From positions 55,947 through 119,946 of IMG/VR virus record IMGVR_UViG_3300021962_000036: 64,000 nucleotides of DNA. One strand, 5' to 3'. This document shows positions 14,145 to 64,000 of the stretch, in pieces. The notes beneath the pieces were generated by a model that worked only from the letters and a program-made list of their open reading frames with translations, was not told the origin of the DNA and did not search any database. This DNA is from a virus. Both the position numbers and the translations under genes were made by a program. Numbering within the stretch: the stretch's first letter is position 1; each line of letters starts with the position of its first letter.

Positions 14145-17100
14145 ATGAACACATGTCCAAATCCAAATAGTCCTGAGTGGAAAGAACTAGTAGCAAAACT
14201 AGGTGAAGGTCAGGCTATGACTGCTTATACTTTAAATGGAAACAACACTCCTTCTGTTGAAGAAGCTGAAGCATTATTAAGCAAACTTAAGGTTGAAGAA
14301 AAAGATGAACAAGTATCAAGATCTTCAGATGAGTTTAAACTACAACGTGCTGTACAACAAAGAACTTCTTTAGAAAAACTTAAGTTCCAGGCTAATCCTA
14401 AACAGAAAGCTACAATTGATCAGCTTATCACAATGAATGATAACTATCAAGAGTTCTTAAGAAAGAACATAGAACTTGCAAAGAATGGACAACCTATTAT
14501 AAAAACAGTAAGTGTTTCTAACTTTATTGGTTCTTCTGACTTTAATGTAGATCCTAAAGAGTATGAGGCGTTCAAATTATTTGGAACATTCATGCATGAG
14601 GTGTTAGAGTTGGGGCAACTTAAGTCTTTGGATACAGGAAAATCTATTTTTGAAATTGTTGATGAAGACTTCTTTAAAGAAGCTTATGATAACTACACAA
14701 AAAAGAATCCTTTCTTTATTGAAAACTTGGATGAGTCAACCATGTTTGATATGGCAAAGCGTTTAGCAATGCATGTATCTATACACAACGACAGAGGATA
14801 CATGATTCTTCCAGAGATTACAGTAACAGGTACTACCAGAACAGGGACTACAGTTATTGGACGTTTGGATTTAATGTTGGTAGATACTCAAGGACGCGTA
14901 AGTGTATTTGACTTTAAGACTAAGAAAGTAAAACGTCTTGTAGAGTATGATCCAATTGGTCAACCAGTAATGAATGAAGATTTAGCATTTGTTGATCTTG
15001 CAGAAAAATCATTTCCTGTTTCAAATAAAGAAGGAACATCTCCTGCGTTTAGAGGTCAGGGTAGAACAGCATATGATACTTGGACATTGCAATTAAAGGT
15101 GTATGAAAATATCTTGCAGCAAAGTGGTCTTGAGGTTAACGCTCAATCTATTGTTGCTCTTATGTATCAAACAGATGATAACAAGAAGTTTGTTGGAGCT
15201 ACTGTCCATGTATTTGATGAAGATAACTATTACAACTATGCAGGTTCAGCAGATATTCCAAATAATAATGGTCACTGGGTTGCAGATCCTACAAGAGGCG
15301 CAGACTTAATTAAAAGTCTAAGAGATGTTGTAGATAAAGAAATACCAACATCTGATGTAGAGGAAGAAGAAAAAGCAAAAAAGGAAGCAAAACTATTGGA
15401 GTTTGAACCTACTTCTAAAAATGATGAAACATTAAGAAATAGGTTAAAGCAAATTGTAGATGCAGAGTTAGATGAAATTGGCAAACAAATTAAAGAACTT
15501 GATTCTAACCAAAGTAATCCTGCACTTAGAGAAATATTAGCAACTAGACGTAAAACATTAAATGATTTTAATGCTATTATGTCAAGACCTCAATCTGAAG
15601 AAGATGTAAAGTATTCAGTAAACTTAGCATTAGCTATTGAATCTGTAGGTGTTGATTTGGAAACTTTATCAAGATTGTCAGATGAGGCAATTGTAAATTT
15701 TAAAATAAACAAAGATTCTTATACTTCAAAAGAAGGTGCACAAATTCTTGAAGCTTACAAAAAGTCTAAATCATTAGACATTATTGTAGACATTATCAAA
15801 GAAATTGTAGATGATGCTAGAAGTAATCCTGATAATAACATTACAGTTGACAGTGAAATAATGAAACGTCTTTCTGAGATGGAGTCTTCATTAGCTAGAG
15901 TACAATCAAACTTTGCAAAGGTTGCAATGCACAACAGCATTCAGGTATTAAAAACTCCTGGAAGCAAAGTATTTGCAGAAGTAAATGCTGACATAAAAGA
16001 GGCATTACAAGCTAAGTTAATCAGTTTAAAAAAACAACTTGAAAATTTAAAAGCTGGAAAAGCTAATAGTATATTTCAGTCTATTAAATCTTCTGCTCTT
16101 TCTTTTATGAGTAAAGAGTACAAACAAAAACTTGCAGAGAAACTAGAAAAGGATGGCAACAATGATACTCCAGGTTTAATGTTAGAGATTGAAAAGCTTG
16201 AAAAACAAATACTTACAGTTGAAGCTGTCATTGATGGTGGATTAGATTTTGATGACGCTGCTTTAGAAAGATATATTTCTGGTGTAACAACGTCAACGTC
16301 AAATCTTTATTTAGGTTCTAACACAGCATTCAATAGTAATAGTTGGTTACAAAACTTAATGTTAGATAAAGCAATTGCATCTGCTTCAAATAGTAGTGTT
16401 GAAATTGCAGCGTTTACAATGATGTTAAAAAATGCTGAAGGATTGGCTAGAATGGAAATTCAAAACAACCTTGCTGTGTTAAAGTTTGATCAGAAGAGAG
16501 ACTCTCTTTTAAAGAGAATGTCAGTTGAACAACTTAATGAAAGAGTATCTGAGTGGAGAAAAACTACAAGTATAGATAAAGAAGGCAATCCTGTAGAGAA
16601 GAACATTCTTTATATGACCAAACCTTTTGGTGAAGAGTATGAAAATACATACAGATCATTTAGTGCTACAATCAGACAGTTAAATAAAGAAATTTATGAA
16701 GCTAAGATTAAGTACAATGAAAACATTAAAACTGCAGAAGCACAACAATATAAAGATGCTTACCTAGCAAAGCAATCAGAAAGAGAAGCAGAAAATACCA
16801 AGTATATTAAATGGATGATGGACAATGCTCATTTACCTTTTAATGAGAAGTTTTATGAACTGCAACTTGGAATGCCTCATGATATTAAAGATAAGTTACA
16901 AGAGAAGTATCTTGAAATTGAAACAATAACCTTCCAGGTAGGTAAAGGTAATGAAGTGCTACTTGAGGATCATGACTTTGAACGTTTGCAAGAGTTGGAG
17001 ATTGAGATTAAAAAACTTAGAGTAGAAGCAAAAAAACTTAACCCAAAGTATGCAGATATGATAGATGAGTTTAACTCACTATTTGAATTTGATACTAACC

Positions 17101-20042
17101 AAGCATTCTTTGATAGAATGCAGTTCAATGCAAAATCTAGATATGAATCTGAGCATCCAGAACTATGGGAGAAATGGAAAAAAGATAATACTGTTAATAG
17201 ACCAACTTCTGAGTGGTATGAAGAACTTAGTGCTTTATATGAAGCAAGAGCTGCTATATTTGGTTCAGATCCACAGATTGCTGACCTTATGCAAAAGCGT
17301 AGAGACATACTTTCTCCTTACAAAATTGGTGGAAGAATTAAACCTCAGTATTTAAGTCAGTCTGAAATTGATTCTTTAAGTGAGATTGATGCAGAAATTG
17401 AAAGCATCATTGAACAAAATTCTAAATCTGGAGGCACGCTTACTGCTGATGAGAAAAAAGCATCAAGAGAAATAACAGATGCTATTAAAAGAATATCATC
17501 ACTTCAATTGAGTGAATCTTATAATGATACTTTTGAATCAAAAGTAAAATCATTGTACGCACATCAAAGATCAATCATTGATGCTGAAAATAAACTTGCT
17601 ACTGCTAGAACAGCAGGAGATAAGAAAGCAATTGAAGATGCAGAAGAAGCATTGATTTTTGAGGAAACTCAATATGGAATGCAAGAGGCTGAATTTGAGA
17701 CATGGTATAACATGCACCATGAAAACAAATATCAAAGTATTCTTAGTGGGTATGACATTAGAAATAATAGAGTACCAAAAAACTTTAACTTTGAAAAACT
17801 ACCTGCTGCAACTGTAAAGGATCAGTACATGGAAACTGTACCTCATCCTAAATATAAAATCAAACGCTTAAAAGAATCTTCTAAGAATCCTGAATTCTTG
17901 AAGTCACCTGACGGTGTTCCAATGCCAAAAGCAATTAGTAAAAACAAGGATGGCAATTATATAGTTACTCCTGGTTATGAGAACTCTCCTAACATTAATC
18001 CTAAGTATAAAGAGTTAATGAAAGACCAAGAGTTATTTAGTTTTTATAATGACACAATGAAAATGTTCTTTGAACTTCAAATGAAAACTGAAGGACGTAA
18101 GATTGGTTATCAAGTTCCAGGATTTGCTGCATCAACTGTTGAGAATATTTCTAGTAAAGGAATGTTAAGTTCTATTGATGCTGAATGGCAAAAGTTTGTT
18201 GACAAAAGTGTAAAAGTATATGGTTCACAAGATGCTGTTGAAAATGTATTTGGTGATCTTGGTTCTAAGATTAGACATAGATTTACAGATCAATTACCTG
18301 AAAACTTGCAGTCAAGAGATGCAATTGGATCAATTATAAAGTACACAACAGAAGCTCATTACAATATTGCAATGCAAAGTGTTGCTCCTCAAGCAGATAT
18401 GTACATTGAGCATTTAGAGTTTATGGCTGAACAATTACAAAAAAATATTCAGCAGGATAAACCTATGTTTCTTAGAGATGAAGCAACAGGTAAGGAAGTT
18501 AAAGTAGATATGTCTAAGCGTTTAGGTGAACTTAAAAATGTAATTAGCATTCTTCAGTTTGAACGCAGAAAATTCTTATACGGTCAAACAGAAAGTGGTA
18601 ATGACTTAAACAGAAAGCTTACCAAAAGAATGAACTCTGTATTTGCTTATACAAGTTTTATCAGAATTGGTTTTGATGTTGCCAACCAGGCAAAGAACTA
18701 CATCTCTGGAAACGTGCAAGCATTTATTGCTGCAGGTGGATTAGCAGGTGATAAGTATACACAAGCTGATTACATGTGGGCTAAATCTAAAGTATATGGA
18801 TACAATGGATTCTTGCATAACTATTTTGCTGATTGGGGTAAAGTAAGTGATGTTAGTGATTCTACAATGTTATATCGCTTTTTTAATCCTGCACAAAAAG
18901 ACTTTTTAAAATATGTTTCTGAAATTACAGGTACAAAAGGGCGTAGACTAAAAGGTAAAGCGTTGAATGTCCAAGAGTTAGGATACATGTTACAAGATAA
19001 AGGTGATACTGAAATTGCAGTTACAGTAATGTATGCTGTCATGAATCACCACAGATTTAGAGTTATTGATAGTTTTGACAGCCAAGGTAATCCTGTTTAC
19101 AAGAAAGATGCTAATGGTGAAGATGTAACAGTACCAGTTCATGAAATCTACATGAAAGATTCAGAAGGACGTATGGTTAAAAGAAGTGATGTAGAGTACA
19201 CTCAAGATGATGAAAACAGAATAAGAAACATTATCTATTCTGAAATGAGGCGTGCTCAGGGTAACTACGCTAAAGCTGACCAAACAAAGTTTGAAGAAAA
19301 CATGATTGGTAAAATGGTATTCTTCTTTAGAAAATACCTTGTGCCTCAGTTACTTAATAGATTTGGTTACTTAAGACCAAACTGGGAAGGTTCAGAAGCA
19401 GCAATGGGATACTGGAGTGCAGTAGCTACAGCATGGAAAGCATATGGTCCTCAAGAAGTTGGTAAACATTTATTACTAGGAAGTAAAAGAATGTCTAAAA
19501 ACAATAAGAATCAGATGGGTAGCTTTTTGACAAGAAAGGTTAACCAGGCAAGAAGAGATGCAATTGCAATGTTAGTATTGACTGTGTTAGGTATCTTGGC
19601 TAAGAGTTATGTTAATAAGAAAGATGATGATGATGAGGAACTAAGTTTCTTAGAAGGTAACGCCATTAGGGTTCTATGGGGCGTAAAAGGTGAAACTGTA
19701 TCAATGTTCCCTGTTGGTGGAGGTTCTGAAGAATACATCAGAAACTTTACAACTGTATCATCTTATACTAGAGAGTTAAATGCTCTTAAGAAGTTTGGTT
19801 CACACGCAATTAGTTATGGTATGGCTATGACAATAAATGGTGGTGAGGAGCCAGATCCAGATAATGACAGCGAACTTTACCAAGATATCTGGAAAGATGC
19901 ATTCTATGGACGTAAGTATGGAGCATACCAAAAAGGTGATGCTAAAATAGGAAAAGACCTTATGGATCTTACAGGTATTAAAAACTTTAGAGATCTAGTC
20001 AACCCTAATTACAGAATAGATCAGATGAAAGGCAAGCAGTAA
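14145..20042 (+). CDS. giant cargo/ejection protein 3 with N-terminal PD-(D/E)XK nuclease domain and C-terminal hydrophobic segment, 1965 aa
   Basis: GTFMHEVLE...PE...GRLDLMLVD...FDFKT...QLKVY (RecB/Cas4-like) at ~14580-15110, long coiled-coil body, and AIAMLVLTVLGILA near 19560-19610. Confidence 0.8.
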   Translation: MNTCPNPNSPEWKELVAKLGEGQAMTAYTLNGNNTPSVEEAEALLSKLKVEEKDEQVSRSSDEFKLQRAVQQRTSLEKLKFQANPKQKATIDQLITMNDNYQEFLRKNIELAKNGQPIIKTVSVSNFIGSSDFNVDPKEYEAFKLFGTFMHEVLELGQLKSLDTGKSIFEIVDEDFFKEAYDNYTKKNPFFIENLDESTMFDMAKRLAMHVSIHNDRGYMILPEITVTGTTRTGTTVIGRLDLMLVDTQGRVSVFDFKTKKVKRLVEYDPIGQPVMNEDLAFVDLAEKSFPVSNKEGTSPAFRGQGRTAYDTWTLQLKVYENILQQSGLEVNAQSIVALMYQTDDNKKFVGATVHVFDEDNYYNYAGSADIPNNNGHWVADPTRGADLIKSLRDVVDKEIPTSDVEEEEKAKKEAKLLEFEPTSKNDETLRNRLKQIVDAELDEIGKQIKELDSNQSNPALREILATRRKTLNDFNAIMSRPQSEEDVKYSVNLALAIESVGVDLETLSRLSDEAIVNFKINKDSYTSKEGAQILEAYKKSKSLDIIVDIIKEIVDDARSNPDNNITVDSEIMKRLSEMESSLARVQSNFAKVAMHNSIQVLKTPGSKVFAEVNADIKEALQAKLISLKKQLENLKAGKANSIFQSIKSSALSFMSKEYKQKLAEKLEKDGNNDTPGLMLEIEKLEKQILTVEAVIDGGLDFDDAALERYISGVTTSTSNLYLGSNTAFNSNSWLQNLMLDKAIASASNSSVEIAAFTMMLKNAEGLARMEIQNNLAVLKFDQKRDSLLKRMSVEQLNERVSEWRKTTSIDKEGNPVEKNILYMTKPFGEEYENTYRSFSATIRQLNKEIYEAKIKYNENIKTAEAQQYKDAYLAKQSEREAENTKYIKWMMDNAHLPFNEKFYELQLGMPHDIKDKLQEKYLEIETITFQVGKGNEVLLEDHDFERLQELEIEIKKLRVEAKKLNPKYADMIDEFNSLFEFDTNQAFFDRMQFNAKSRYESEHPELWEKWKKDNTVNRPTSEWYEELSALYEARAAIFGSDPQIADLMQKRRDILSPYKIGGRIKPQYLSQSEIDSLSEIDAEIESIIEQNSKSGGTLTADEKKASREITDAIKRISSLQLSESYNDTFESKVKSLYAHQRSIIDAENKLATARTAGDKKAIEDAEEALIFEETQYGMQEAEFETWYNMHHENKYQSILSGYDIRNNRVPKNFNFEKLPAATVKDQYMETVPHPKYKIKRLKESSKNPEFLKSPDGVPMPKAISKNKDGNYIVTPGYENSPNINPKYKELMKDQELFSFYNDTMKMFFELQMKTEGRKIGYQVPGFAASTVENISSKGMLSSIDAEWQKFVDKSVKVYGSQDAVENVFGDLGSKIRHRFTDQLPENLQSRDAIGSIIKYTTEAHYNIAMQSVAPQADMYIEHLEFMAEQLQKNIQQDKPMFLRDEATGKEVKVDMSKRLGELKNVISILQFERRKFLYGQTESGNDLNRKLTKRMNSVFAYTSFIRIGFDVANQAKNYISGNVQAFIAAGGLAGDKYTQADYMWAKSKVYGYNGFLHNYFADWGKVSDVSDSTMLYRFFNPAQKDFLKYVSEITGTKGRRLKGKALNVQELGYMLQDKGDTEIAVTVMYAVMNHHRFRVIDSFDSQGNPVYKKDANGEDVTVPVHEIYMKDSEGRMVKRSDVEYTQDDENRIRNIIYSEMRRAQGNYAKADQTKFEENMIGKMVFFFRKYLVPQLLNRFGYLRPNWEGSEAAMGYWSAVATAWKAYGPQEVGKHLLLGSKRMSKNNKNQMGSFLTRKVNQARRDAIAMLVLTVLGILAKSYVNKKDDDDEELSFLEGNAIRVLWGVKGETVSMFPVGGGSEEYIRNFTTVSSYTRELNALKKFGSHAISYGMAMTINGGEEPDPDNDSELYQDIWKDAFYGRKYGAYQKGDAKIGKDLMDLTGIKNFRDLVNPNYRIDQMKGKQ

Positions 20043-22021: not shown

Positions 22022-25000
22022 ATGTCAATAACTCTAGTTAGGAAGTCTCAGATAAGACCTCTGAACATTATAAGAAGTGATATAAACACTACTACTTCAG
22101 GTTCAGCTTTGATTACAAAAGTCATAGCTGGAACAGGATTGACGTTGTCTTCTTCAACTGGAATTAATTCAGGTACAGGTGATGTAACAATTGCATTAAG
22201 TATTGCGTCAGCTTCTGTATTAGGTGGTGTTAAAATAGGTTCAGGATTAAGCATTGCTGTTGATGGTACAATTAGTGTAATAAGTACATCTACAACATGG
22301 GGTTCTATAACAGGAAATCTCCCTAGTCAACTAGATTTACAAACAGCACTTAATGCAAAGTACAATAATCCTACAGGAACAACTTCTCAGTACATTGATG
22401 GTACTGGTGCTTACCGCTCATTTCCAACTTTTCTTTCTTCTAACTCAATAAGTCATGAAGTAAAAGCAGGTGTAGCAATAAATAAAGGACAAGCAGTTTA
22501 CGTGACAAGTGCTGATGGAACCAATATGATTGTTGGTTTAGCGTCTAATTCTTCTGAAGCAACATCTTCTAAAACAATGGGTTTACTAGATGCAACTGTT
22601 TCTACAAATGGTTTTGCTAGAGTTGTAACTGAAGGTCTTTTAGCTGGTTTAAACACAAATGGTGCAAATGCTGGAGATCCTGTTTGGTTAGGTACTGGCG
22701 GAAACTTAATTTATGGTTTAGCAAACAAACCTTACGCTCCTGCACATTTAGTATTTATTGGTATTGTTACAAGAGCAAACTCTAGTAATGGTGAAATCTT
22801 TATAAAAGTACAGAATGGCTTTGAGTTTGGCGAATTACATGATTATGTACAAAATGGCGTACAAGATAATTTTGTAATATCATATGAAGCATCTACAAGT
22901 TTATACAAACCCAAATCAATTGCAACTCTTTTAGGATACACTGCTGCAAACGATGCAAACGTAGTTCATAAAACTGGTGCAGAAAGCATTGCAGGTGTTA
23001 AAACATTTTCTGATACTACCCAATCAACTTCAGTTTCAAGTGGAGCAGTTGTTGTTAGTGGAGGTGTTGGCATAACAAAAAATTTATATGTTGGTGGTGA
23101 CATTAACATTTCAGGTAATTTAACAATTGGTGGTACAAACACAATTATAAATGCCCAAAACTTATCAGTTTCAGATAACATGATTTATCTGAACAATGGT
23201 ATTGAAACAACAATTACAAATGTTGTAGCTAATGGCACAACAATAGTATATACAACTCAACAAGTTCACAACTATTCTATTGGAATGGTTGTAACAATTT
23301 CTGGAGTAACTCCAGCAGGATTTAATTTAAATAACCAAGCAATAACTGCAGTAGGTACAAATTCATTTACTATTGCAAGTTCTGTTACAGGATCTTATGT
23401 TTCTGGTGGTACTGCTAGAGCTAAATCATCAGCAAATCCAGATCTTGGTTTTGCAGGTGGATACAACGATGGTACTTATGGACATGCTGGTTTATTTAGA
23501 GATGCTACAGACAATGTTTGGAAATTTTTTAAAGGATATACTCCTGAACCAGACGCATCTCCTTTTATAGATACATCACATGCATCTTTTGCATATGCTG
23601 ATTTACGTGCTTTTAATATTACAGGTAATTCTTTTGTTAAAGTAGGAGGGACTTCTTCTCAATTTCTAAAAGCAGATGGTAGTATTGATAGTTCAACTTA
23701 TGCAACTACATCTCAATTACATAATGCTGTAACTATTGGTACAGCAAATGGCCTTAGTTTAAGTACTCAAGTGTTATCTTTAGGATTAGCTAGTGGTTCT
23801 GCAACTGGAGCTTTAAGTTCTGGAGATTGGACTACTTTTAACAATAAACAGGCAGCATTAAATGGTACAGGTTTTGTAAAAATATCTGGTACAACAATAT
23901 CTTATGACAACAGTGTTTATCAATTAGCTAGTACAGCTATAACAACAACTAACATTGGAAGTCAATCAGTAAGCTATGCTACCACAGCAGGTAGTGCAAC
24001 TGTTCTTCAAACAGCAAGAAATATTAATGGTACAAGTTTTAATGGTTCTGCAGATATTACAACAGCCAACTGGGGTACAGCAAGAACTATCACAATTGGT
24101 GGTACAGGAAAATCTATAAATGGTTCTGCTAACGTGTCATGGACTCTTGCAGAAATTCAAGCAGAATATGAAGTTCCTTTGAATACTTTAAGAACTAATC
24201 TTGGATCTCCAACTGTTCGCGAAGCTGCCCTTTTTCATGGTCAATTTAATAATAAATTTAGATTTATAGTTCCAACTTTACAAGAAGAAAGTACAGATGG
24301 AACAACTTGGGTAACATCAACAAGAGCCAGTGCATCTGTACTTGGAGATATGATGATTGGTGAAGGTCAAGGTACTAGTTTTAATGCAATACCTACTGGT
24401 ACAGTTGGTACATATGGAGCGTACCGTTTAACTTGGAATGTTGTTGGTTCTACAGGATATGTATTCTTAAATGCTTTATATATTTATAACTCAACAAATG
24501 GTAATAATGTAACCGTTACTATTGAAGCGTTTCATAATACAAATGGTTGGCAAGTAATCACAGGTCCTCACACAACAAATAACTGGCCTGGTCACTCTTA
24601 TATTCCACATTCAAATATTCCATATAGTAATAGTGCTGCTCAGTATAGTCAAGTACGAGTAACATTTACTACGACTCATAATGCTAACACAAATGCTTTT
24701 AATATTAATGGGATTGAATGGTTTGGTGGATATCCTCAAGGTAGAAGAAATGCAGAGTCTTATGACAGACTAAAGAATGTAACTTTCCCAGCTGCAATTA
24801 CTGGTACTAATATTATAAAATCAGGTGGAACATCTTCTCAGTTTTTGAAGGCAGATGGTTCTGTAGATTCAAGTGCTTATATTACATCTAGTGCATTGAC
24901 AGGATATGCAACTCAATCATGGGTTACATCTCAAGGATATTTATCAGCTGAAATAGATACACTGGCAACAGTAACATCTCGTGGTAATTCTACATCAACT

Positions 25001-27607
25001 GCTGTTGTTGTCAATAATACATTAACAGTAAATAACACTTCACACTATGATTCAACTCAATTCTCATTAGATGTTAATGGTGGATTGTTAGTAAAGAACT
25101 CTGGTAAAGTAGCTCAGTTTGTTTTAATAAACTCAGACCCTGCTTCTGGTGGTAATGCTGGATTTGTTGTGCACACTGTTGGTGGTGCAACTACAACTTC
25201 ATATGTAGATATTCAAGGATATTATGGAGCGTCTATTGCAGGTAGCACTACACTTAGATTAAATGCGTTAGGTGGTGCTGTCACAATTAATGGAAATACA
25301 GCTTATCATGCTGGTAATTTAACCAATCTAAATCAGCTTGCCAATGGACCTGGTTACATTACATCATATACAGAAACAGATCCAACTGTACCTTCTCATG
25401 TAAAATCAATTACTACTACAAATATAAGTAATTGGAATACAGCATTTGGTTGGGGCAATCATGCAAGTCAAGGATACTTAACAAGTGTTACAAATATTTC
25501 AGGATATGCTGGAACTTTAAATAGAGAAGATAATAGAACAATATCTCCTAGTGAGTTGACAGCTGGCCAAATGAAATTTGGTTTTACATCTTGGAATAAT
25601 AATAATTCAACTCCTTATGCAGATTTCATACACATGCGTTCTTATACTGACGCTTCTGGTGGGTCAGATAATCTCATCATGTTTAAGAAGACTGGTATTG
25701 GTATGCGTATTTGGCAACAAACTTGGGGTTCTTCTACTGCTTATTCTGGATTTGTTGATGTATGGACAACTGGAAACTTTACACAAACAGATGTAGATAC
25801 TTGGAACACTGCATACTCTTGGGGAAATCATACAAGTGGAGGTTATTTAACCTCTGCAATTGCTGCTACAACATATGTATCTCTTACAGGAAGTTACACA
25901 AACCCATCATGGATAACTAATTTAAATTATTCTAAGATTACAGGTGGAACAGCCTCTCAATTTTTGAAAGCTGATGGTACTGTTGATAGCAACATTTATG
26001 CTCTAGATAGTGCTGTAGTCCATTTAACTGGTAATGAAACTGTTGCTGGAGTTAAAACATTTACAAACACTGGGAATTCTCAAACTAACGGAGTAAGATT
26101 TATTAATAACGGTGTTGCTGCAAGTTTCTCATTGTACACTAACAATTCTAATGCAGGATATGGTGTATGGACAACCAACGGTGGTTCAGGTACAGGTTTA
26201 TATTCTCAGAACTCAGGTACTGGAAATGCAATTGTTGCAGAAAACGTAGCTCCTAATGGAATTGCTTTAAAAGCAAGAAATCAGTTTGGTGGTAAAGGGA
26301 TAGAATTAACCAATGAAGGGGCTGGCTTAGGTTTAATAATTAACAATCTTACTGCAGCAACTGGAATGCCTTTTAGCATTCAAAAAAATGGTTCTGACAA
26401 ATTTACTATCAATGACGCAGGAGACGCAACCGCAACTAAATTTGTAAAATCAGGTGGTACATCCGCTCAATACTTAATGGCAGACGGAACTGTTTCTACA
26501 GGTCCTAACTTAGCTGGGTATTTAGCATTAACTGGAGGTACTCTTACAGGTGTGTTGAATGGTACTAGGCTATCTTTTACACAGTCATCAGCTTTTGATA
26601 CATTGTATGCTTACAATGGTTCAGTTGGTGCAATAGCTATTAGTGGTGGTGCTGCTAATGGAACAGGTGGTTATTTTGTCAACAACTCAACTACATATCC
26701 TGTACTTAAAGTATTAGGTTTATCTGGCACTACATTAATTGAAGGTAGAAGTACTAGTGATGCAATTATATTTTCTGTTACATCTACTGGTATAGTAACT
26801 GGTTCTTCTTTTGTTAAAAGTGGTGGTACAGCTGCTCAAATACTTGCAGCTAACGGAACTGTTATTACAGCTGGTACAGGAATTACAATTAGTGGAGGAA
26901 CAATTTCAGCTTCTGCTGTAGGTGGAGTTTCTTCGTTTAATACAAGAACTGGAGCTATAACATTAACATTAGCAGATGTCACAGGAGCTTTAGGGTACAC
27001 ACCATACAACAGTTCAAATCCATCAAGTTACATAAGTTCATACACTGAAACAGATACATTTGCTAGTGTTACAGGTAGAGGAGCTACAACTTCAACTCCA
27101 ATAACCATAACTGGTACTGAAGGAAGAGAAGTTGCTGTATACATGCCTTCATCATATACCACAAATGATTTAGTTTCTGGTCATGAATATGGATGGTATA
27201 GTGATCATTGGAGACTTGGAATGACTCGTTCAGGAGCTGCTGCTGGTGCTGATTTTGTAGTTCAATGGAATGGAGCTAGAAAACTTTCATTAAGTAACGC
27301 AGGTGACATCATTGTAACTGGAACTGTTACTGAACAGTCATCAAAAAGATACAAAGAAAACATTATAGATTTAGAACCAATTTCTGAGAAAGTAAACAAA
27401 CTTAGACCTGTTAGATATAACAAAATAGGATTTGCAGAACAAGAAATTGGATTAATTGCAGAAGAGGTTGGTGAGTTATTTCCAGAATTTGTAAATTACA
27501 ATGATGCTGGTCAAGCTGAATCACTTAACTATACAAGATTGTCAGTGCTATTATTACAGACAGTAAAAGAATTATCAGATAAAATCAAAAAATTAGAAAC
27601 TAAATAA
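22022..27607 (+). CDS. long tail fibre 1 with C-terminal intramolecular chaperone (peptidase S74), 1861 aa
   Basis: Repetitive G/T/S-rich body, then SSKRYKENI...LRPVRY...IGLIAEEV...LNYTRL and a terminal coiled coil. Confidence 0.88.
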   Translation: MSITLVRKSQIRPLNIIRSDINTTTSGSALITKVIAGTGLTLSSSTGINSGTGDVTIALSIASASVLGGVKIGSGLSIAVDGTISVISTSTTWGSITGNLPSQLDLQTALNAKYNNPTGTTSQYIDGTGAYRSFPTFLSSNSISHEVKAGVAINKGQAVYVTSADGTNMIVGLASNSSEATSSKTMGLLDATVSTNGFARVVTEGLLAGLNTNGANAGDPVWLGTGGNLIYGLANKPYAPAHLVFIGIVTRANSSNGEIFIKVQNGFEFGELHDYVQNGVQDNFVISYEASTSLYKPKSIATLLGYTAANDANVVHKTGAESIAGVKTFSDTTQSTSVSSGAVVVSGGVGITKNLYVGGDINISGNLTIGGTNTIINAQNLSVSDNMIYLNNGIETTITNVVANGTTIVYTTQQVHNYSIGMVVTISGVTPAGFNLNNQAITAVGTNSFTIASSVTGSYVSGGTARAKSSANPDLGFAGGYNDGTYGHAGLFRDATDNVWKFFKGYTPEPDASPFIDTSHASFAYADLRAFNITGNSFVKVGGTSSQFLKADGSIDSSTYATTSQLHNAVTIGTANGLSLSTQVLSLGLASGSATGALSSGDWTTFNNKQAALNGTGFVKISGTTISYDNSVYQLASTAITTTNIGSQSVSYATTAGSATVLQTARNINGTSFNGSADITTANWGTARTITIGGTGKSINGSANVSWTLAEIQAEYEVPLNTLRTNLGSPTVREAALFHGQFNNKFRFIVPTLQEESTDGTTWVTSTRASASVLGDMMIGEGQGTSFNAIPTGTVGTYGAYRLTWNVVGSTGYVFLNALYIYNSTNGNNVTVTIEAFHNTNGWQVITGPHTTNNWPGHSYIPHSNIPYSNSAAQYSQVRVTFTTTHNANTNAFNINGIEWFGGYPQGRRNAESYDRLKNVTFPAAITGTNIIKSGGTSSQFLKADGSVDSSAYITSSALTGYATQSWVTSQGYLSAEIDTLATVTSRGNSTSTAVVVNNTLTVNNTSHYDSTQFSLDVNGGLLVKNSGKVAQFVLINSDPASGGNAGFVVHTVGGATTTSYVDIQGYYGASIAGSTTLRLNALGGAVTINGNTAYHAGNLTNLNQLANGPGYITSYTETDPTVPSHVKSITTTNISNWNTAFGWGNHASQGYLTSVTNISGYAGTLNREDNRTISPSELTAGQMKFGFTSWNNNNSTPYADFIHMRSYTDASGGSDNLIMFKKTGIGMRIWQQTWGSSTAYSGFVDVWTTGNFTQTDVDTWNTAYSWGNHTSGGYLTSAIAATTYVSLTGSYTNPSWITNLNYSKITGGTASQFLKADGTVDSNIYALDSAVVHLTGNETVAGVKTFTNTGNSQTNGVRFINNGVAASFSLYTNNSNAGYGVWTTNGGSGTGLYSQNSGTGNAIVAENVAPNGIALKARNQFGGKGIELTNEGAGLGLIINNLTAATGMPFSIQKNGSDKFTINDAGDATATKFVKSGGTSAQYLMADGTVSTGPNLAGYLALTGGTLTGVLNGTRLSFTQSSAFDTLYAYNGSVGAIAISGGAANGTGGYFVNNSTTYPVLKVLGLSGTTLIEGRSTSDAIIFSVTSTGIVTGSSFVKSGGTAAQILAANGTVITAGTGITISGGTISASAVGGVSSFNTRTGAITLTLADVTGALGYTPYNSSNPSSYISSYTETDTFASVTGRGATTSTPITITGTEGREVAVYMPSSYTTNDLVSGHEYGWYSDHWRLGMTRSGAAAGADFVVQWNGARKLSLSNAGDIIVTGTVTEQSSKRYKENIIDLEPISEKVNKLRPVRYNKIGFAEQEIGLIAEEVGELFPEFVNYNDAGQAESLNYTRLSVLLLQTVKELSDKIKKLETK

Positions 27608-46269: not shown

Positions 46270-46725
46270 TTAACATTTACAATTTTCCATATCTCTTGTA
46301 AAGTATCTACCTAAAATATTACCATTGTATGTGTTTGCTTTAAGCACATCATTTTTTACTTGATGTGAAAGTTCACAATAGTTTAAATACTTTTTAGTAC
46401 AACATACTTCCAAGATTTCTCTTTTGAAATTTTCAGGTCCCATTCTAGTTACATCTTCTTTTAAATCTACAGATGAACCATAGTAGGTCATCCAATCAGA
46501 TTCTTTGACTGTTTGCTTGAATATTTTTCTAGTACCTGTTTGTGTTTTTTCTCTTTTGGAGATCCTAGTCTTACGCTTATGGTAAAGACTCTTTTGGCCA
46601 ATGTAAAACTTACCAGTTTTTAAGTTGGTTATTCTGTATATAAAACCAATGACTTCCTCATGATTTGGGATGTCTTCAACTTTTAATACCTTCTTCTTAA
46701 GAGAAGGATAATACCAGTTTGTCAT
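46270..46725 (-). CDS. GIY-YIG endonuclease
   Basis: GFIYRITNLKTGKFYIGQK, YYGSS, ENFKREIL, YNGNI. Confidence 0.85.
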   Translation of the reverse strand: MTNWYYPSLKKKVLKVEDIPNHEEVIGFIYRITNLKTGKFYIGQKSLYHKRKTRISKREKTQTGTRKIFKQTVKESDWMTYYGSSVDLKEDVTRMGPENFKREILEVCCTKKYLNYCELSHQVKNDVLKANTYNGNILGRYFTRDMENCKC

Positions 46726-55587: not shown

Positions 55588-56013
55588 TTAATTACCTGTT
55601 GAGCCATGACCTCCATCACCTCTTTCAGTTTCAGATAATTTATCAACTTCTTCAAAGTCAATGTGAGGATAAGGCATGATGATTAATTGTGCAATCTTTT
55701 CACCTACTTTGTATTTTACATCTGCGTAAAAACGTGAGTTAAAAGTTGCTTGAATCTCTCCACGATAACCTGAATCAATAACACCAACTGAATTGCTGAG
55801 GTATTGTTCATATTTGCGTATTGAGCTGCGCGGGAATACAAGTCCTACATATCCTTCTGGAATTTCTACTGCAAGTCCAGTTCCATATACAACTTGTTCT
55901 TTGTCATAACTAATGATGTGTGTAGCTACTAAATCTAAACCAGCGTCTCCTGGTTTTGCATATACAGGAACTACAGCATCTTTGTGTAAACGTTTGATTT
56001 TAACTTTCATCAT
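55588..56013 (-). CDS. dut: dUTPase (trimeric)
   Basis: GDAGLDL, PRSS, GVIDSGYRGEI, IAQLI, RGDGGHGSTG. Confidence 0.95.
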   Translation of the reverse strand: MMKVKIKRLHKDAVVPVYAKPGDAGLDLVATHIISYDKEQVVYGTGLAVEIPEGYVGLVFPRSSIRKYEQYLSNSVGVIDSGYRGEIQATFNSRFYADVKYKVGEKIAQLIIMPYPHIDFEEVDKLSETERGDGGHGSTGN

Positions 56014-60923: not shown

Positions 60924-61299
60924 GTTCTTTTCTGTATTGAATTTCTTTTCTAATAAGATCTAAATGCCAGTCTGGTCCACCATAATCTAATACAGCTTCT
61001 AACCAGTTATCATTCATATCGCATATTGCAATCCACGATAATGGTTGTTTACCATCAACGCCTCTTCCTCCACGCGTAGCATACTTGCGTACAAGTTCAA
61101 AATCATCATCTGCATAAACAGCATAGATTTTTATTTTTGTCATATCTTTTGCACCATATCTTAAATAAGAAGTGCCACCATCTACCATTGCGTTGTTAGG
61201 ACAAGAACATGTTTTGTAATCATGTCTGTGATAACTTACAATAGTTTCATTACACTCTTGACATGTCACAGAGTTGTAAACTAATTGTTTATCTTGCAT
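60898..61299 (-). CDS. Zn-ribbon hypothetical protein
   Basis: CQEC...SYHRHDYKTCSC...VDGG. Confidence 0.7.
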   Translation of the reverse strand: MQDKQLVYNSVTCQECNETIVSYHRHDYKTCSCPNNAMVDGGTSYLRYGAKDMTKIKIYAVYADDDFELVRKYATRGGRGVDGKQPLSWIAICDMNDNWLEAVLDYGGPDWHLDLIRKEIQYRKEHGISIKEN

Positions 61300-61513
61300 T
61301 TTCTAATGGAATAAAAGTTTTGTTAAAATATTCTTCTGATACTATTTTTTTGATTTTTTCATAGCAATCAGAGTTTGTTGTAAGTTTATTGCCTACTTTT
61401 TTAAAAGTTACACAAACATCACTATTTATATAACGTATGCCATACTCATGATTACTTTCTAGCATCCTGTCAAATAAAAATTCTTGTATTTTTTTTTCTG
61501 ATTCACTAATCAT
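61289..61513 (-). CDS. hypothetical protein
   Basis: 74 aa. Confidence 0.55.
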   Translation of the reverse strand: MISESEKKIQEFLFDRMLESNHEYGIRYINSDVCVTFKKVGNKLTTNSDCYEKIKKIVSEEYFNKTFIPLENAR

Positions 61514-61596
61514 AAAAACATTAACATTACGCCAGCAAATCCAATACCTGCAAAGAAGTATATAAGATTATTTAGCCATTGAGGATAATTTTCCAT
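61510..61596 (-). CDS. 28-aa single-TM peptide; not in ORF track
   Basis: MENYPQWLNNLIYFFAGIGFAGVMLMFL*, with ATGA overlap to the next gene. Confidence 0.6.
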   Translation of the reverse strand: MENYPQWLNNLIYFFAGIGFAGVMLMFL

Positions 61597-61605
61597 ATGA
61601 GATCT

Positions 61606-62463
61606 TTAAAAAATGTATCTAATTTTATTCCAAGGAATAATTTCATCATGAAGGTTTGTGAACTCTTCTATGTACTGTGATTTCAAACCATGCTTGTAGC
61701 GTAGATTCAATCCTCCATATTGAGATACTTTATCTTCTTGAATAGAAGGATTCCATAGCAAGTCTTCACCTGTCAAGTTATTCTTTAAATTATAAAAGTG
61801 TTTATCACGATTATGTGTTAAGAATATAACCTCAGCTTTGACTTGTTCTTTGTACTTTCTATCTACAAGAGCATCCACACCTTCAAAAAGCATTCTATAT
61901 TGTTCTAACCAATCATCTTTTACAATAACAGGTGAAAAATTGATATGAACATCATAACCTGCTTCAATAAAGTCATTAATAGCTTTAATTCTATCAATGA
62001 TTTTACTGGTGTTTGGCTCTAGCAAATCTGCATACTTTTGAGGCATCAATGAAAATCTTATACGTATCTTTCCTTCAGGATTGTACGTACAAAGTTCTTC
62101 ATTAACATACTTTGTTGCAAAAGAACCCATGGCAATTTCACTTTGCTTAAAAAAGTCAAAAATATACTGCCATTTGTGGTACTTAAGATGCAATGCGAAG
62201 TCTTCATTACATGAAATGTCATAAGTAACAAACTTCTCATGAGTTTGATTAGGTTTATCTACAGTAGAAAACCAGCTATGATTATTAATTTCTGTAAGAA
62301 TCTCACTGGTATTCTTGGCAATGTCTAATCCTTCAGGTTTATGACGTTTCATGTAACAATAAGTACAGTTAAATAGACAACCATGCCCAAAGCTTGGTGA
62401 TATAAAGTCTGTACTTCTGCCACTCTCACGTATGAGCATTGATTTTCTAATTACTTGTTCCAT
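61606..62463 (-). CDS. spore photoproduct lyase-like radical SAM enzyme
   Basis: GCLFNCTYCYM (CxxxCxxC), SCNED, FATK, RIRFSLMP, EPNTS....RI.A, NFSPVI. Confidence 0.85.
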   Translation of the reverse strand: MEQVIRKSMLIRESGRSTDFISPSFGHGCLFNCTYCYMKRHKPEGLDIAKNTSEILTEINNHSWFSTVDKPNQTHEKFVTYDISCNEDFALHLKYHKWQYIFDFFKQSEIAMGSFATKYVNEELCTYNPEGKIRIRFSLMPQKYADLLEPNTSKIIDRIKAINDFIEAGYDVHINFSPVIVKDDWLEQYRMLFEGVDALVDRKYKEQVKAEVIFLTHNRDKHFYNLKNNLTGEDLLWNPSIQEDKVSQYGGLNLRYKHGLKSQYIEEFTNLHDEIIPWNKIRYIF

Positions 62464-62465
62464 TA

Positions 62466-62798
62466 CTAATCTTTTTTAGTAAGTTCTGAGATGTAAGTAT
62501 CCCATCCTAATTTCTTAGCATAAAAAGCATGCTTAACAGTATGACCAACCATACCTCCAGTTTGCCCATCACCACCTGCAATCATATGATTTACAAGAGG
62601 TTCAAGTTCTGGATCAAATGCATTTTTGCCACCACCATTAATAATGTTAAACATTTCTTGATTATCATCAAAATATTCAACTCCTTTGATTACCATACGT
62701 TGGCATTCAAGTTCATAGTCACATGGATTTGTGTCATCGTCTGAAAATCCACTTAAAAAGTCTCCTACAGGATACTTGTACTTTGATTCTTTTATCAT
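62466..62798 (-). CDS. hypothetical protein (cassette array)
   Basis: Start ATG supplied by the 19-bp repeat at 62795. Confidence 0.7.
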   Translation of the reverse strand: MIKESKYKYPVGDFLSGFSDDDTNPCDYELECQRMVIKGVEYFDDNQEMFNIINGGGKNAFDPELEPLVNHMIAGGDGQTGGMVGHTVKHAFYAKKLGWDTYISELTKKD

Positions 62799-63004
62799 TG
62801 TTCTTGTTGTTTAAAGGTTTCAATTTCTATTACTTCACAATAACTACTTCTCCCACCATATCTTGTCCAGTAATCAGAGTAAGATATCAACCTTAATTGG
62901 TAAGCATTATCATTAAACGAACGTTTATACCAAGTTCCTTTTCTTAATTTTCTATACCACTTAAATCTACCGAGATAAGTGTCAATCCAAGTTTGTTTCT
63001 TCAT
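62795..63004 (-). CDS. hypothetical protein ending KQQEQ (cassette array)
   Basis: Bounded by the repeats at 63001 and 62795. Confidence 0.65.
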   Translation of the reverse strand: MKKQTWIDTYLGRFKWYRKLRKGTWYKRSFNDNAYQLRLISYSDYWTRYGGRSSYCEVIEIETFKQQEQ

Positions 63005-63372
63005 TGTTCTTGTTGTTTAGTTTCTACAATCTCAATTATTTTCTCAAGACAAGCAAGTTCTGTTTCTTCATAAGTATCATAAGCATCTGAAAGAATTGAT
63101 TCTGAAAGAGTGGTGCTATCTGGCATTGACCATTTAATATAGAAATCATGATTATTATAATTATGGGTGGAAAAACTGACAAAAAACCCTTTCTCCCTAA
63201 ACCATCTAAATGCTTGTGAAAATATTGGTGCTTTTACGGCATAAGAATAATCATATTCCTCTGACTCTAGGTCTAAATAGTTTTCATTATGGTATGCACC
63301 AAAACATTCTTCATTAAATCCAATTGCTTTGAGTTTAACCGCCAACTCATAAGGTACAAATTCTTTTATCAT
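63001..63372 (-). CDS. hypothetical protein ending KQQEQ (cassette array)
   Basis: MIKEFVPYELAVKLK..GF...AP..SQAFRWFREK...TYEE. Bounded by repeats. Confidence 0.7.
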   Translation of the reverse strand: MIKEFVPYELAVKLKAIGFNEECFGAYHNENYLDLESEEYDYSYAVKAPIFSQAFRWFREKGFFVSFSTHNYNNHDFYIKWSMPDSTTLSESILSDAYDTYEETELACLEKIIEIVETKQQEQ

Positions 63373-63384
63373 TGTTCTTGTTGT

Positions 63385-63609
63385 TTAAAAGGTTTCATCC
63401 CAATACTCTTCAAATGTTTGCCAATTTTCTTCTGCAATACCTTTGCCTTCAAATCTACCCGCTTGATGTGCTATATCCCAAGTTTCTTTGTGTGATTGCT
63501 TCTCCATTCTTCTTGCGTGGTTATAAATTGAAACTTCACTAAAATATTCACTAATACCTTTTCCGTAATTATCTAACTCTTTTATTAACCATTCTACTGC
63601 TGTTTTCAT
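63385..63609 (-). CDS. hypothetical protein, MKTAVEWL family (cassette array)
   Basis: MKTAVEWL...ARRMEKQ...EEYWDETF. The ATG is at 63607-09. Confidence 0.7.
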   Translation of the reverse strand: MKTAVEWLIKELDNYGKGISEYFSEVSIYNHARRMEKQSHKETWDIAHQAGRFEGKGIAEENWQTFEEYWDETF

Positions 63610-63797
63610 TATCCTTGTTGTTTAGGTATATAACCATAGTTTTCAATTCCCTTTTGGTACATATCTACCATTTGCTTTTTCTCCATTGACCTTGCTTTTT
63701 CAAAGATTTGGTCAAAGGTCATCTTTTCATACCAATACTCATCGCACATTAATTTCTCTTTAATGTACTCTACTGCTGTTAATTGTTCTTCTTTCAT
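63609..63797 (-). CDS. hypothetical protein, TAVE family, ends KQQG (cassette array)
   Basis: LTAVEYI...FEKARSMEKKQ. Confidence 0.7.
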   Translation of the reverse strand: MKEEQLTAVEYIKEKLMCDEYWYEKMTFDQIFEKARSMEKKQMVDMYQKGIENYGYIPKQQG

Positions 63798-64000
63798 TGT
63801 TCTTGTTGTTTAGTTATCATTTCGTGTTTCACTCCGAATTCATCATACCCATCTTTGTACTCTGGCGAAAGATGGCTAAACTCCACACTATCGTCCACTA
63901 TCTGAAGGTTACCAGTGAAGCAGTACCCCGTACATTTTAGAAGATTTTCGAGTATCTCTAGCATCTGCTCCATATTCAAATCGTTGTATGGTACTTCGTA
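63794..64000 (-). CDS. hypothetical protein ending KQQEQ (5' end beyond window)
   Basis: Frame is open to 64000 (YEVPYNDLNMEQ...). Confidence 0.6.
   Translation of the reverse strand, partial: YEVPYNDLNMEQMLEILENLLKCTGYCFTGNLQIVDDSVEFSHLSPEYKDGYDEFGVKHEMITKQQEQ

Follow-up and report, generated by a model that had tools for sequence, protein, structure and literature searches.

A short start-codon-associated connector at the junctions of small-gene arrays in phages

The final 64 kb of the 119,946-bp virus record IMGVR_UViG_3300021962_000036 from IMG/VR (CheckV 99%, GC 34%; positions 55,947 to 119,946, a stretch of 64,000 nt termed the window) ends in an array of small genes on the minus strand, joined to one another by a short repeat that carries both stop and start codons. 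Here we describe this repeat, the core of which is the 18-mer TAAACAACAAGAACAATG, a 15-nt A-rich leader fused to an ATG, in the window and in other viral sequences. We favor the reading, to which we give a probability of roughly 0.6, that it is a portable stop-leader-start connector: a translation-initiation signal without a Shine-Dalgarno (SD) sequence that would also serve as a patch of homology for the exchange of gene cassettes. The evidence lies in the position of the repeat, its independence of the upstream reading frame, its conservation at the nucleotide level, its composition, its predicted accessibility, and the mosaicism of the arrays, with breaks at the motif. The element is a start-associated connector, a new form of the same kind as the start-associated sequences (SAS) of mycobacteriophages and the promoter(early) stem-loop elements (PeSL) of T4-type phages, without an SD sequence, a terminator or an excess of promoter-like sites, and it is not an integron.

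Results

A 19-bp repeat joins the genes of the array

The 19-mer TAAACAACAAGAACAATGA occurs on the minus strand of the window in exact form at 62795, 63001, 63369 and 63794 and with two mismatches at 63606, giving spacings of 206, 368, 237 and 188. These copies agree in position and spacing with a preliminary description made from the letters of this DNA, as does the presence of one small open reading frame (ORF) in each interval (69, 123, 74 and 62 aa). At up to three mismatches the window holds seven matches, compared to 0.26 expected, and none of 100 shuffles reaches seven; the remaining two (52304 and 56781, three mismatches each) resemble chance matches. A de novo repeat search of the sequence gives the same repeat family independently. 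The copies are as follows:

62795..62813, minus: connector copy 1 (exact); stop of ORF69 (KQQEQ-stop, the TGA overlapping the ATG), 15-nt leader, ATG of gene X
63001..63019, minus: connector copy 2 (exact); stop of ORF123 (KQQEQ-stop), leader, ATG of ORF69; contig L286 (see below) diverges just past this ATG
63369..63387, minus: connector copy 3 (exact); stop of ORF74 is the opening TAA (other frame), the rest being non-coding leader and the ATG of ORF123
63606..63624, minus: connector copy 4 (2 mismatches, ...CAAGGATAATGA); ORF62 ends KQQG-stop, TAATG overlap, ATG of ORF74
63794..63812, minus: connector copy 5 (exact); stop of the 5'-truncated ORF, leader, ATG of ORF62

The genes that they join are:

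62466..62798, minus: gene X, 110 aa; follows the last copy; without Pfam or PHROG family
62795..63004, minus: cassette ORF69, 69 aa; a singleton among motif-led ORFs
63001..63372, minus: cassette ORF123, 123 aa; phrog_25117, function unknown; 143 relatives in IMG/VR
63385..63609, minus: cassette ORF74, 74 aa; in F0, the largest motif-led family (56 members)
63609..63797, minus: cassette ORF62, 62 aa; F0 paralogue of ORF74
63794..64000, minus: 3' part of an 81-aa ORF cut by the record end; complete in L286, with an ordinary non-motif leader there

Three of the five ORFs upstream of these copies read K-Q-Q-E-Q-stop through the repeat and one reads K-Q-Q-G-stop, whereas ORF74, upstream of the copy at 63369, ends at the TAA that opens the repeat (...ETF-stop), indicating that two reading frames of the repeat are used within one array. 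The proposal that the repeat encodes the upstream C-terminus (KQQEQ or KQQG), its stop and the next ATG therefore holds for four of the five copies and fails at 63369. A Pfam search returned no family for gene X, ORF69, ORF123, ORF74, ORF62 or the truncated ORF, and in a PHROGs search of the cassette proteins matches were returned for ORF123 alone, all of them of unknown function. Tandem duplication of one gene family was considered as the origin of the array and rejected, as only ORF62 and ORF74 are paralogous, with 110 families overall and 68 singletons.

The array had also been described as running off the window edge. An independent metagenome contig of 3,057 nt, L286, is 100% identical to window 63000-64000 and does continue the array upstream, although the edge is at the same time the end of the virus record. 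The 2,042 nt that L286 adds upstream encode NinG (PF05766, 1e-36), ERF (PF04404, 2e-31), a 223-aa ORF (o223), an 87-aa ORF (o87) and the complete 81-aa first ORF of the array.

The repeat is tied to the start of the downstream ORF

Scanning the record and related contigs for the repeat revealed a sixth exact copy in the record, at bases 104-120 and thus outside the window, and at least 120 IMG/VR stretches, from 119 contigs, that hold the 18-mer. These IMG/VR loci were picked up by an exact copy. Within the listed loci (1.06 Mb) there are 312 copies at three or fewer mismatches with the ATG kept, of which 224 are exact and 51, 17 and 20 have one, two and three mismatches, respectively. In 119 of the 120 listed loci all copies share a strand, and neighboring copies are usually separated by 130-400 nt.

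The exact 15-nt leader is followed by ATG in 224 of 233 cases in these motif-fetched loci and in all 28 cases in loci fetched by protein homology, which had not been chosen for the motif. Motif-led ORFs have a median length of 65 codons, with fewer than 30 codons in 21 of 279, and AAA follows the ATG as second codon at 204 of 311 copies. Upstream of the motif the picture is varied: when ORFs of at least 40 codons are considered (311 copies), 133 copies have an upstream ORF that stops at the TGA and 57 have one that stops at the TAA, 13 are read through in the third frame, and 108 lack such an ORF; at a threshold of 30 codons (292 copies) the counts are 131 TGA, 60 TAA and 101 others. In 190 of the 203 copies with a long upstream ORF, that ORF ends inside the motif.

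The pattern of variation was then compared with the KQQEQ reading frame. Among copies from loci picked by an exact copy, with variants accepted only to three mismatches, changes fall at the third codon position 9 times, at the second 21 times and at the first 97 times. The A's of the motif are almost invariant, while T1, C5, C8, G11 and C14 vary, mostly to A. That the third positions are the least changed, together with the varied use of frames, argues that the motif is not a peptide tag; conservation at the protein level only, which the preliminary description had named as the sign of such a tag, is the opposite of what is seen, since the synonymous third positions are the best conserved. Beyond the 18-mer there is only a partial conserved extension, AACCTT, in 79 of 292 copies, and random pairs of copies from different loci have a median of 21 exact nt in common, with 23 or more in 32% of pairs. 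These sequence comparisons show that the repeat belongs to the start of the downstream ORF, and they support its being a connector at the DNA or RNA level.

The leader has the build of a Bacteroidia-type initiation region

SD-like 4-mers at -20 to -4 are present in only 2 of the 121 predicted genes of the record, compared to 9.7% at random positions. Instead, A is enriched upstream of the record's genes at -14 to -11 (0.51-0.68), at -6/-5 (0.59) and at -3 (0.62). The motif has no SD sequence, and its A's stand at -14, -13, -12, -10, -9, -7, -6, -4, -3 and -1. The mean unpaired probability predicted for -18 to +6 is 0.75 at motif starts (n = 224), 0.58 at other starts (n = 250) and 0.47 at internal sites (n = 250; Mann-Whitney p = 1e-34).

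The same upstream profile is described for Flavobacterium johnsoniae, in which A at -3, -6, -12 and -13 stimulates initiation, as determined by ribosome profiling and reporters, and in which structure also tunes initiation (Baez et al., 2019; PMC6847099). The likeness of the motif to the SD-less initiation region of Bacteroidia extends to the missing SD, the run of A at -14 to -11, the A's at -3 and -6, low structure and the lack of an extra AUG nearby, so that the motif has every positive determinant reported there (PMC6847099). By its build, then, the motif would be a Bacteroidia-type SD-less initiation region. Cellular initiation regions are degenerate, however, whereas here one exact 18-mer stands at hundreds of unrelated genes and carries stops in two frames.

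Transcription signals were also sought. A scan for promoters, which covers the sigma-70-like consensus and has Bacteroidota-type promoters outside its scope, found 10 promoter-like sites versus 13.8 +/- 3.6 in shuffles, and the same scan found no terminator-like sites. TAnnTTTG, the consensus of the Bacteroidota promoter word, occurs at 95 plus-strand and 93 minus-strand sites versus 64 and 91 for a reversed control, and is too degenerate to be informative in this AT-rich genome.

The motif is spread across phages and concentrated behind a recombination module

Among CheckV-complete records, which were searched whole, a 32-kb genome with direct terminal repeats (DTR) has 11 copies within 2.8 kb, a 65-kb genome and a 67-kb DTR genome have three each, a 174-kb genome has 22 in five clusters, and a 290-kb genome has two degenerate copies. 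Homologues of the DNA polymerase of the 119-kb record (54% identity) were found in only two of five records tested, and its capsid protein has no homologue in the two complete records tested.

Of the 120 listed motif loci, 74 encode a homologue of o223 or o87 of L286, and 67 of these have their first motif copy no more than 1.5 kb further downstream (median 160 nt), in the same orientation. NinG, ERF, o223 and o87 are all present in 39 listed loci. This context puts the main home of the motif in one lineage of uncultured phages, in a hypervariable region whose place is fixed, immediately downstream of the recombination module; outside this lineage, stray copies are found in other phages of 65-174 kb. 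An exact copy lies within 500 nt of a contig end in 25 of the 119 contigs versus 11.4 expected under a crude uniform null, which lends weak support to contig ends falling in arrays. At the end of the 173.8-kb record that contains locus L008, the cassettes read F23-F8-F24-F23-F8, an order that reflects either tandem duplication or a loop in the assembly at the motif; this record has motif copies at its opposite end too.

Bacterial and archaeal genomes (596 Gb) gave 58 stretches with a single exact copy each, two or three of them with one looser match as well, and no motif arrays. About 20 of the 58 copies, by reading of the listed matches, lie exactly at the starts of ORFs of roughly 60-695 codons, most of more than 90, and every one of them belongs to the Bacteroidota (Prevotella, Chitinophagales, Flavobacteriia and others), while copies in other phyla are mostly inside ORFs. 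Two short, low-GC contigs that carry the motif, L152 and L156, are binned into a Phycisphaerales metagenome-assembled genome (MAG) and a Flavobacteriia MAG; L156 has the typical phage flank (ACCTT before the motif, MK after), and both are probably phage fragments binned with cellular genomes. In GenBank phages (50,697 records), a 34-nt query spanning the motif matched 44 records at one place each with E-values of 0.1-4, and none of the matches listed aligns the full 18-mer. The 16-mer AACAACAAGAACAATG was not found in the searched literature, which leaves most subscription journals and supplements outside, and a literature search on phage intergenic repeats, Flavobacterium, cassettes and start codons gave nothing on this element among the matches listed.

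Cassette content and order change at motif junctions

The 276 motif-led ORFs of the listed loci form 110 families, of which 68 are singletons and F0, with 56 members, is the largest. Shared by unrelated ORF families in this way, the motif bears out, at the DNA or RNA level, the earlier suggestion of a standard connector. Gene content and order are not fixed but vary among relatives. For example, locus L051 reads F7-F6-F11-F20-F0 and L043 reads F6-F11-F7-u-F0: the F6-F11 block is 99.1% identical between the two over 336 nt, from repeat position 0 to 7 nt past the next ATG, while F7 (92.7%) lies on opposite sides of it. Similarly, F22 of L067 and L073 is 91.9% identical from -2 to +2 with different neighbors, and F11-F20 is 99% identical between L051 and L108, after which F0 stands in one and F1 in the other. 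The cassettes of the window behave in the same manner, as ORF74 has about 82% nucleotide identity to seven contigs, in five of them from repeat to repeat and with differing downstream neighbors, and ORF62 is 88% identical to L051 starting at the repeat. When L286 was compared with nine relatives of the native module (about 81-88% nucleotide identity in the main aligned segments), only matches of 25-55 nt at motif copies were found in the array, and the cassettes differ.

When all contig pairs are counted, 205 of 232 motif junctions have homology that stops no more than 45 nt upstream of the ATG, compared to 1103 of 2435 other tight same-strand junctions, and in a larger locus set the counts are 271 of 355 and 1406 of 3232. 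For the 134 contig pairs in which junctions of both types occur, they are 86 of 144 and 152 of 513, with a Mantel-Haenszel odds ratio of 2.9. A survey of contig pairs at least 93% identical yielded 18 rows of indels of cassette size, in some cases one event seen in two partners. One of the 18 runs from motif to motif: in a pair that is 96-99% identical, the single copy of L098 corresponds to two copies in L046 that are separated by 416 nt, and the high-scoring segment pairs (HSPs) overlap by 24 nt. The expectation that relatives would differ by gain, loss or reordering of cassettes with breakpoints at the repeat is supported, in that homology often ends there; among the indel rows between near-identical contigs, only this one is motif-to-motif. 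A possible role of the motif as a recombination junction is supported by these breakpoint statistics and a few clean cases; it is neither exclusive nor proven.

Other leaders recur at small-gene junctions

Among the homologues of ORF123, 6 of the 80 examined, out of 143, have this leader. Two others recur among them, TAAATCAGAATAAT-ATG (25 copies, 13 loci) and AAAATTGAAGACTG-ATG (11 copies, 7 loci). By reading its letters, TAAATCAGAATAAT-ATG again carries A's at -3, -6, -12 and -13, together with two stop codons that are not in the same frame. Loci with other stereotyped leaders are found among L186-L282 (for example L188, L194, L197, L198, L204, L211 and L244). In 1,256 predicted genes from 97 protein-fetched loci, the 11-mer of this motif is the commonest before ATG (29 genes, 16 loci), followed by the SD-type GGAGGTAACAA (23 genes, 14 loci), and an indel between L259 and L246 is flanked by this SD-type leader. 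The recurrence of several leaders suggests that stereotyped leaders at small-gene junctions are a general habit, with this motif being the most frequent in this sequence neighborhood.

The array most likely comes from another phage

One block of sequence bears on the assignment of the array to the 119-kb phage:

62693..62819, no strand: 127-nt block of the 5' end of gene X, the connector and six further nt (AACCTT), identical to record bases 1-127

In record coordinates, the block in the window is bases 118639-118765. The largest k of a usual metaSPAdes run is 127, and if this value applies, the identity would be an assembly-graph signature of a 118,638-bp circle (with the order Y-motif-X) to which the array (62820-64000) is joined as a side branch or tail. 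The upstream neighbor of gene X is ORF69 in the window and gene Y at the record start and in six related contigs, and the two alternatives diverge 6 nt upstream of the 19-nt repeat. Relatives of gene X were found at 17 loci (16 distinct contigs), 11 of which share more neighboring genes with the record. None of these 11 has the array: six contigs read Y-motif-X, and in the other five X has a different leader and Y is missing. At the Y-X junction of one relative (L275, about 2930-2975), 42 inserted nt separate the stop of Y from the motif and resemble the remnant 3' end of a lost cassette.

An exact search of IMG/VR for the window end gave no match. L286 leaves the window sequence five bases into ORF69, after the motif that follows ORF123, and has an F0-type gene start instead; homologues of its ERF and NinG are absent from the 119-kb record. 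Even alleles of gene X with 55% of residues in common are 90-97% identical over their first 100 nt, making it plausible that genomes share a block of motif plus X start. We conclude that the array most likely derives from a different, co-occurring phage and was joined via the identical motif-plus-X-start block, and less likely represents a large insertion variant of the 119-kb phage; the record is probably partly chimeric, with the tail 62820-64000 (1,181 bp) coming from another genome. It had been proposed that the Sak4-like ATPase and RecE-like exonuclease of the phage drive the shuffling; because the array appears to come from a phage of the NinG-ERF lineage, that link is probably misplaced.

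Other features of the record

A search of window 61000-64000 against GenBank phage DNA gave a single 73-nt match. The DNA polymerase of the record, considered as a guide to the host through the nearest cultured phage, has at most 34% identity to that of any GenBank phage, with mixed hosts, and yields no host assignment. Just downstream of gene X (window 61606-62463, minus) lies a spore-photoproduct-lyase-like radical SAM gene of 285 aa (PF20903, 2e-23). In relatives this gene is found either after X or several genes before X, directly behind a phosphoesterase gene, and these two placements suggest that it is itself a mobile block. Sequence that by appearance resembles the 3' end of a tRNA gene is present just upstream of X in three relatives (L267-L269), and the near-identical L220 and L219 differ by an 836-nt indel flanked by direct repeats of the same tRNA-end-like kind. 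A 150-aa ORF at 46270-46722 (minus), between the exonuclease VIII-like and primase genes, has matches to homing-endonuclease PHROGs (phrog_314, 5e-14; best phrog_447). The structural half of the genome has three very long plus-strand ORFs at 2822-14143, 14145-20042 and 22022-27607 (3773, 1965 and 1861 aa).

Discussion

Comparison with known phage repeats and integrons

The SAS of Cluster K mycobacteriophages is a 13-bp element with the consensus GGGATAGGAGCCC and an AGGAG SD core that lies 3-7 bp from the start, and it is known from one phage cluster (Pope et al., 2011; PMC3203893). Like the motif, it is described as a short, asymmetric, one-orientation repeat near starts, mostly followed by ATG, at non-structural genes of unrelated families; it sometimes contains the upstream stop, it is rare in host genomes, and a role in translation initiation has been proposed for it and is unproven (PMC3203893). 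These features recur here, with an element fused to starts, on one strand in 119 of 120 loci, leading 110 families, in an early or replication-side context. In contrast, the element here is 15 nt plus ATG, has no SD and is fused to the start from which the SAS is spaced, and it occurs in complete genomes of 32-174 kb, some of them without homologues of this phage's polymerase and capsid; in addition, the passages that describe the SAS do not present it as a recombination junction (PMC3203893). With no SD core in the motif and SD-poor upstream regions in the record, we regard it as an analogue of the SAS and not a member.

The PeSL of T4-type phages pairs a sigma-70-like promoter with a terminator stem-loop between small genes, and mini-circles have been demonstrated for it (Arbiol et al., 2010, PMC2839356; Comeau et al., 2014, PMC4122927). 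As far as these accounts describe it, it shares with the motif the character of a small regulatory repeat among non-essential small genes in hypervariable regions, where indels and replacements end at the repeat and the signal doubles as an exchange point. It differs in that the motif has no terminator and no promoter excess, its signal being translational (stop, leader, start) and only 18-25 nt long. The closest element in build is thus the SAS and the closest in evolutionary behavior the PeSL, and the motif is a member of neither.

Two explanations closer to known elements were weighed against this background. One holds that the repeat is a C-terminal peptide tag (KQQEQ) or a PeSL-like promoter and terminator unit, and it could point to the 133 of 311 upstream ORFs that end in the KQQEQ frame and to one weak sigma-70-like match (9 of 12) that overlaps the copy at 62795. 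We consider it very improbable, since a tag is at odds with the 57 upstream ORFs that stop at TAA, the 108 copies without an upstream ORF and the well-kept synonymous positions, and a PeSL-like unit with promoter-like sites no more frequent than in shuffles, the lack of terminator-like sites and the fact that nothing is conserved upstream of the motif. The other is the analogy first drawn for this array, with an integron-like site-specific recombination site. An array in one orientation of promoterless single-gene cassettes with variable content does resemble an integron, but the boundary element here is a translation start, fused to the ATG at a fixed distance (all 28 of the unbiased cases), and no inverted repeat, hairpin or imperfect-palindrome site was found at or beside the motif, the flanks of which are not conserved. 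Nor is there an integrase: the record has no PF00589 tyrosine recombinase, although all 14 of 14 control genomes score, the native lineage being covered in this search only by the 2 kb of L286 (NinG, ERF). The integron analogy is therefore scarcely credible.

A proposed portable stop-leader-start connector

How the connector would work can be sketched from its parts. With a 15-nt A-rich leader fused to the ATG and stops in two frames, TAA at the 5' end and TGA overlapping the ATG, it would end translation of whatever small gene lies upstream. Its unstructured, Bacteroidia-type site, with A at -3, -6, -12, -13 and -14, would then allow ribosomes to start or restart on the next gene from any upstream frame. 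Because the same 18-25 nt stand at every junction of hypervariable small-gene arrays, chiefly downstream of NinG-ERF-o223-o87, the shared connector may also serve as a patch of homology through which whole cassettes would be lost, gained and rearranged, both within one phage and from phage to phage. Most likely its primary role is in translation, consisting of termination followed by SD-independent initiation, and we infer from the letters alone that the connector may drive translation and couple the genes. The breaks at junctions may reflect recombination within the motif itself, rather than the motif marking gene boundaries.

Several points weigh against this reading. G008 (123.7 kb, 98% complete), the closest full-length relative of the 119-kb phage, has zero motif copies, so the motif is dispensable for this phage's lineage. 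The breakpoint counts are of BLAST HSPs between related, non-independent contigs with simple ORF calls, and motif junctions sit in hyperplastic regions, which could by itself raise break rates. In the indel survey, two of the 18 rows have one edge at the motif and, apart from the motif-to-motif row, the remaining ones coincide with gene boundaries that lack it, in several cases with different short direct repeats; as most of these indels do not involve the motif, it is not needed for cassette turnover and is at most a preferred junction. A replacement of the X allele between G000 and L275 was considered as a motif-bounded swap and rejected, the divergence being centered inside the gene. For classical homologous recombination, a stretch of 18-25 nt is short. 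That the C and G positions are kept exactly is more than a generic A-rich leader needs, which points to common descent, homogenization or a sequence-specific factor. Finally, it is the leader signature only that suggests a host among the Bacteroidota.

Two alternatives keep the motif at the start codon. The motif may be a translation leader only, in which case cassettes would move by illegitimate recombination under selection for intact genes, and the motif would mark boundaries with no role in exchange. All of the initiation-region evidence fits this explanation, as do the 15 of 18 indel rows at non-motif boundaries, the frequent breaks at other junctions (1103 of 2435), and a comparison of L125 with L014 in which the motif is the 3' end of a 678-nt insertion that replaces an ordinary leader. 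Yet motif junctions break about twice as often as others, also within the same contig pairs, a clean motif-to-motif indel exists with its 24-nt overlap, and in 224 of 312 copies all 18 positions are the same, even the C and G positions that tolerate change, which is easier to understand with homogenization or spread by recombination. We therefore hold a leader without any part in exchange to be possible but rather unlikely.

A trans-acting factor is the other alternative. T4 RegA and RegB, a translational repressor and an mRNA endonuclease, respectively, act at initiation regions, and the 18-mer could in a similar manner be an operator, the binding or cleavage site of a phage or host RNA-binding protein that switches small early genes together. 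Conservation beyond the need for A-rich sequence, the fixed position at the start codon and the restriction to small accessory genes in early regions would all be expected of such a site, and the same possibility was raised by the authors who described the Cluster K SAS (PMC3203893). However, the motif also occurs in G001 and G004, phages without a polymerase or capsid homologue of this one, and is missing from G008; no co-inherited phage factor is evident, with no search for a co-occurring protein having been made; and the most variable positions change mostly to A, as for a signal driven by composition. An operator thus seems improbable, and the portable connector remains the explanation that we prefer.

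A wider form of the connector reading can be put forward tentatively. The 18-mer might be a community-wide standard plug, a stop/start module complete in itself with which a cassette could be expressed at any site of insertion, and by which, as it is identical in unrelated phages, co-infecting phages of one host group (complete genomes of 32-174 kb) trade accessory genes through short-homology recombination, possibly via the ERF annealing protein encoded upstream of most arrays. The 127-nt join in this contig might then be a trace of such exchange, and other groups might use other plugs, such as TAAATCAGAATAAT-ATG and GGAGGTAACAA-ATG.

The finding also has practical sides. Repeats of this type make branch points in assemblies, and the present record, which appears to carry a 1.2-kb tail from another genome, is a warning of this. 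At the same time, the motif is a simple tag for locating hypervariable accessory-gene arrays in metagenomes, and the leader would be a testable natural module for high-efficiency initiation or reinitiation in Bacteroidia that may be useful for expression tools. Little is understood of the ways in which phages take up and express their large pools of small accessory genes, especially for phages of Bacteroidota, whose hosts ignore SD sequences. In this setting, the connector would provide for translation what the PeSL model of modular shuffling describes for transcription.

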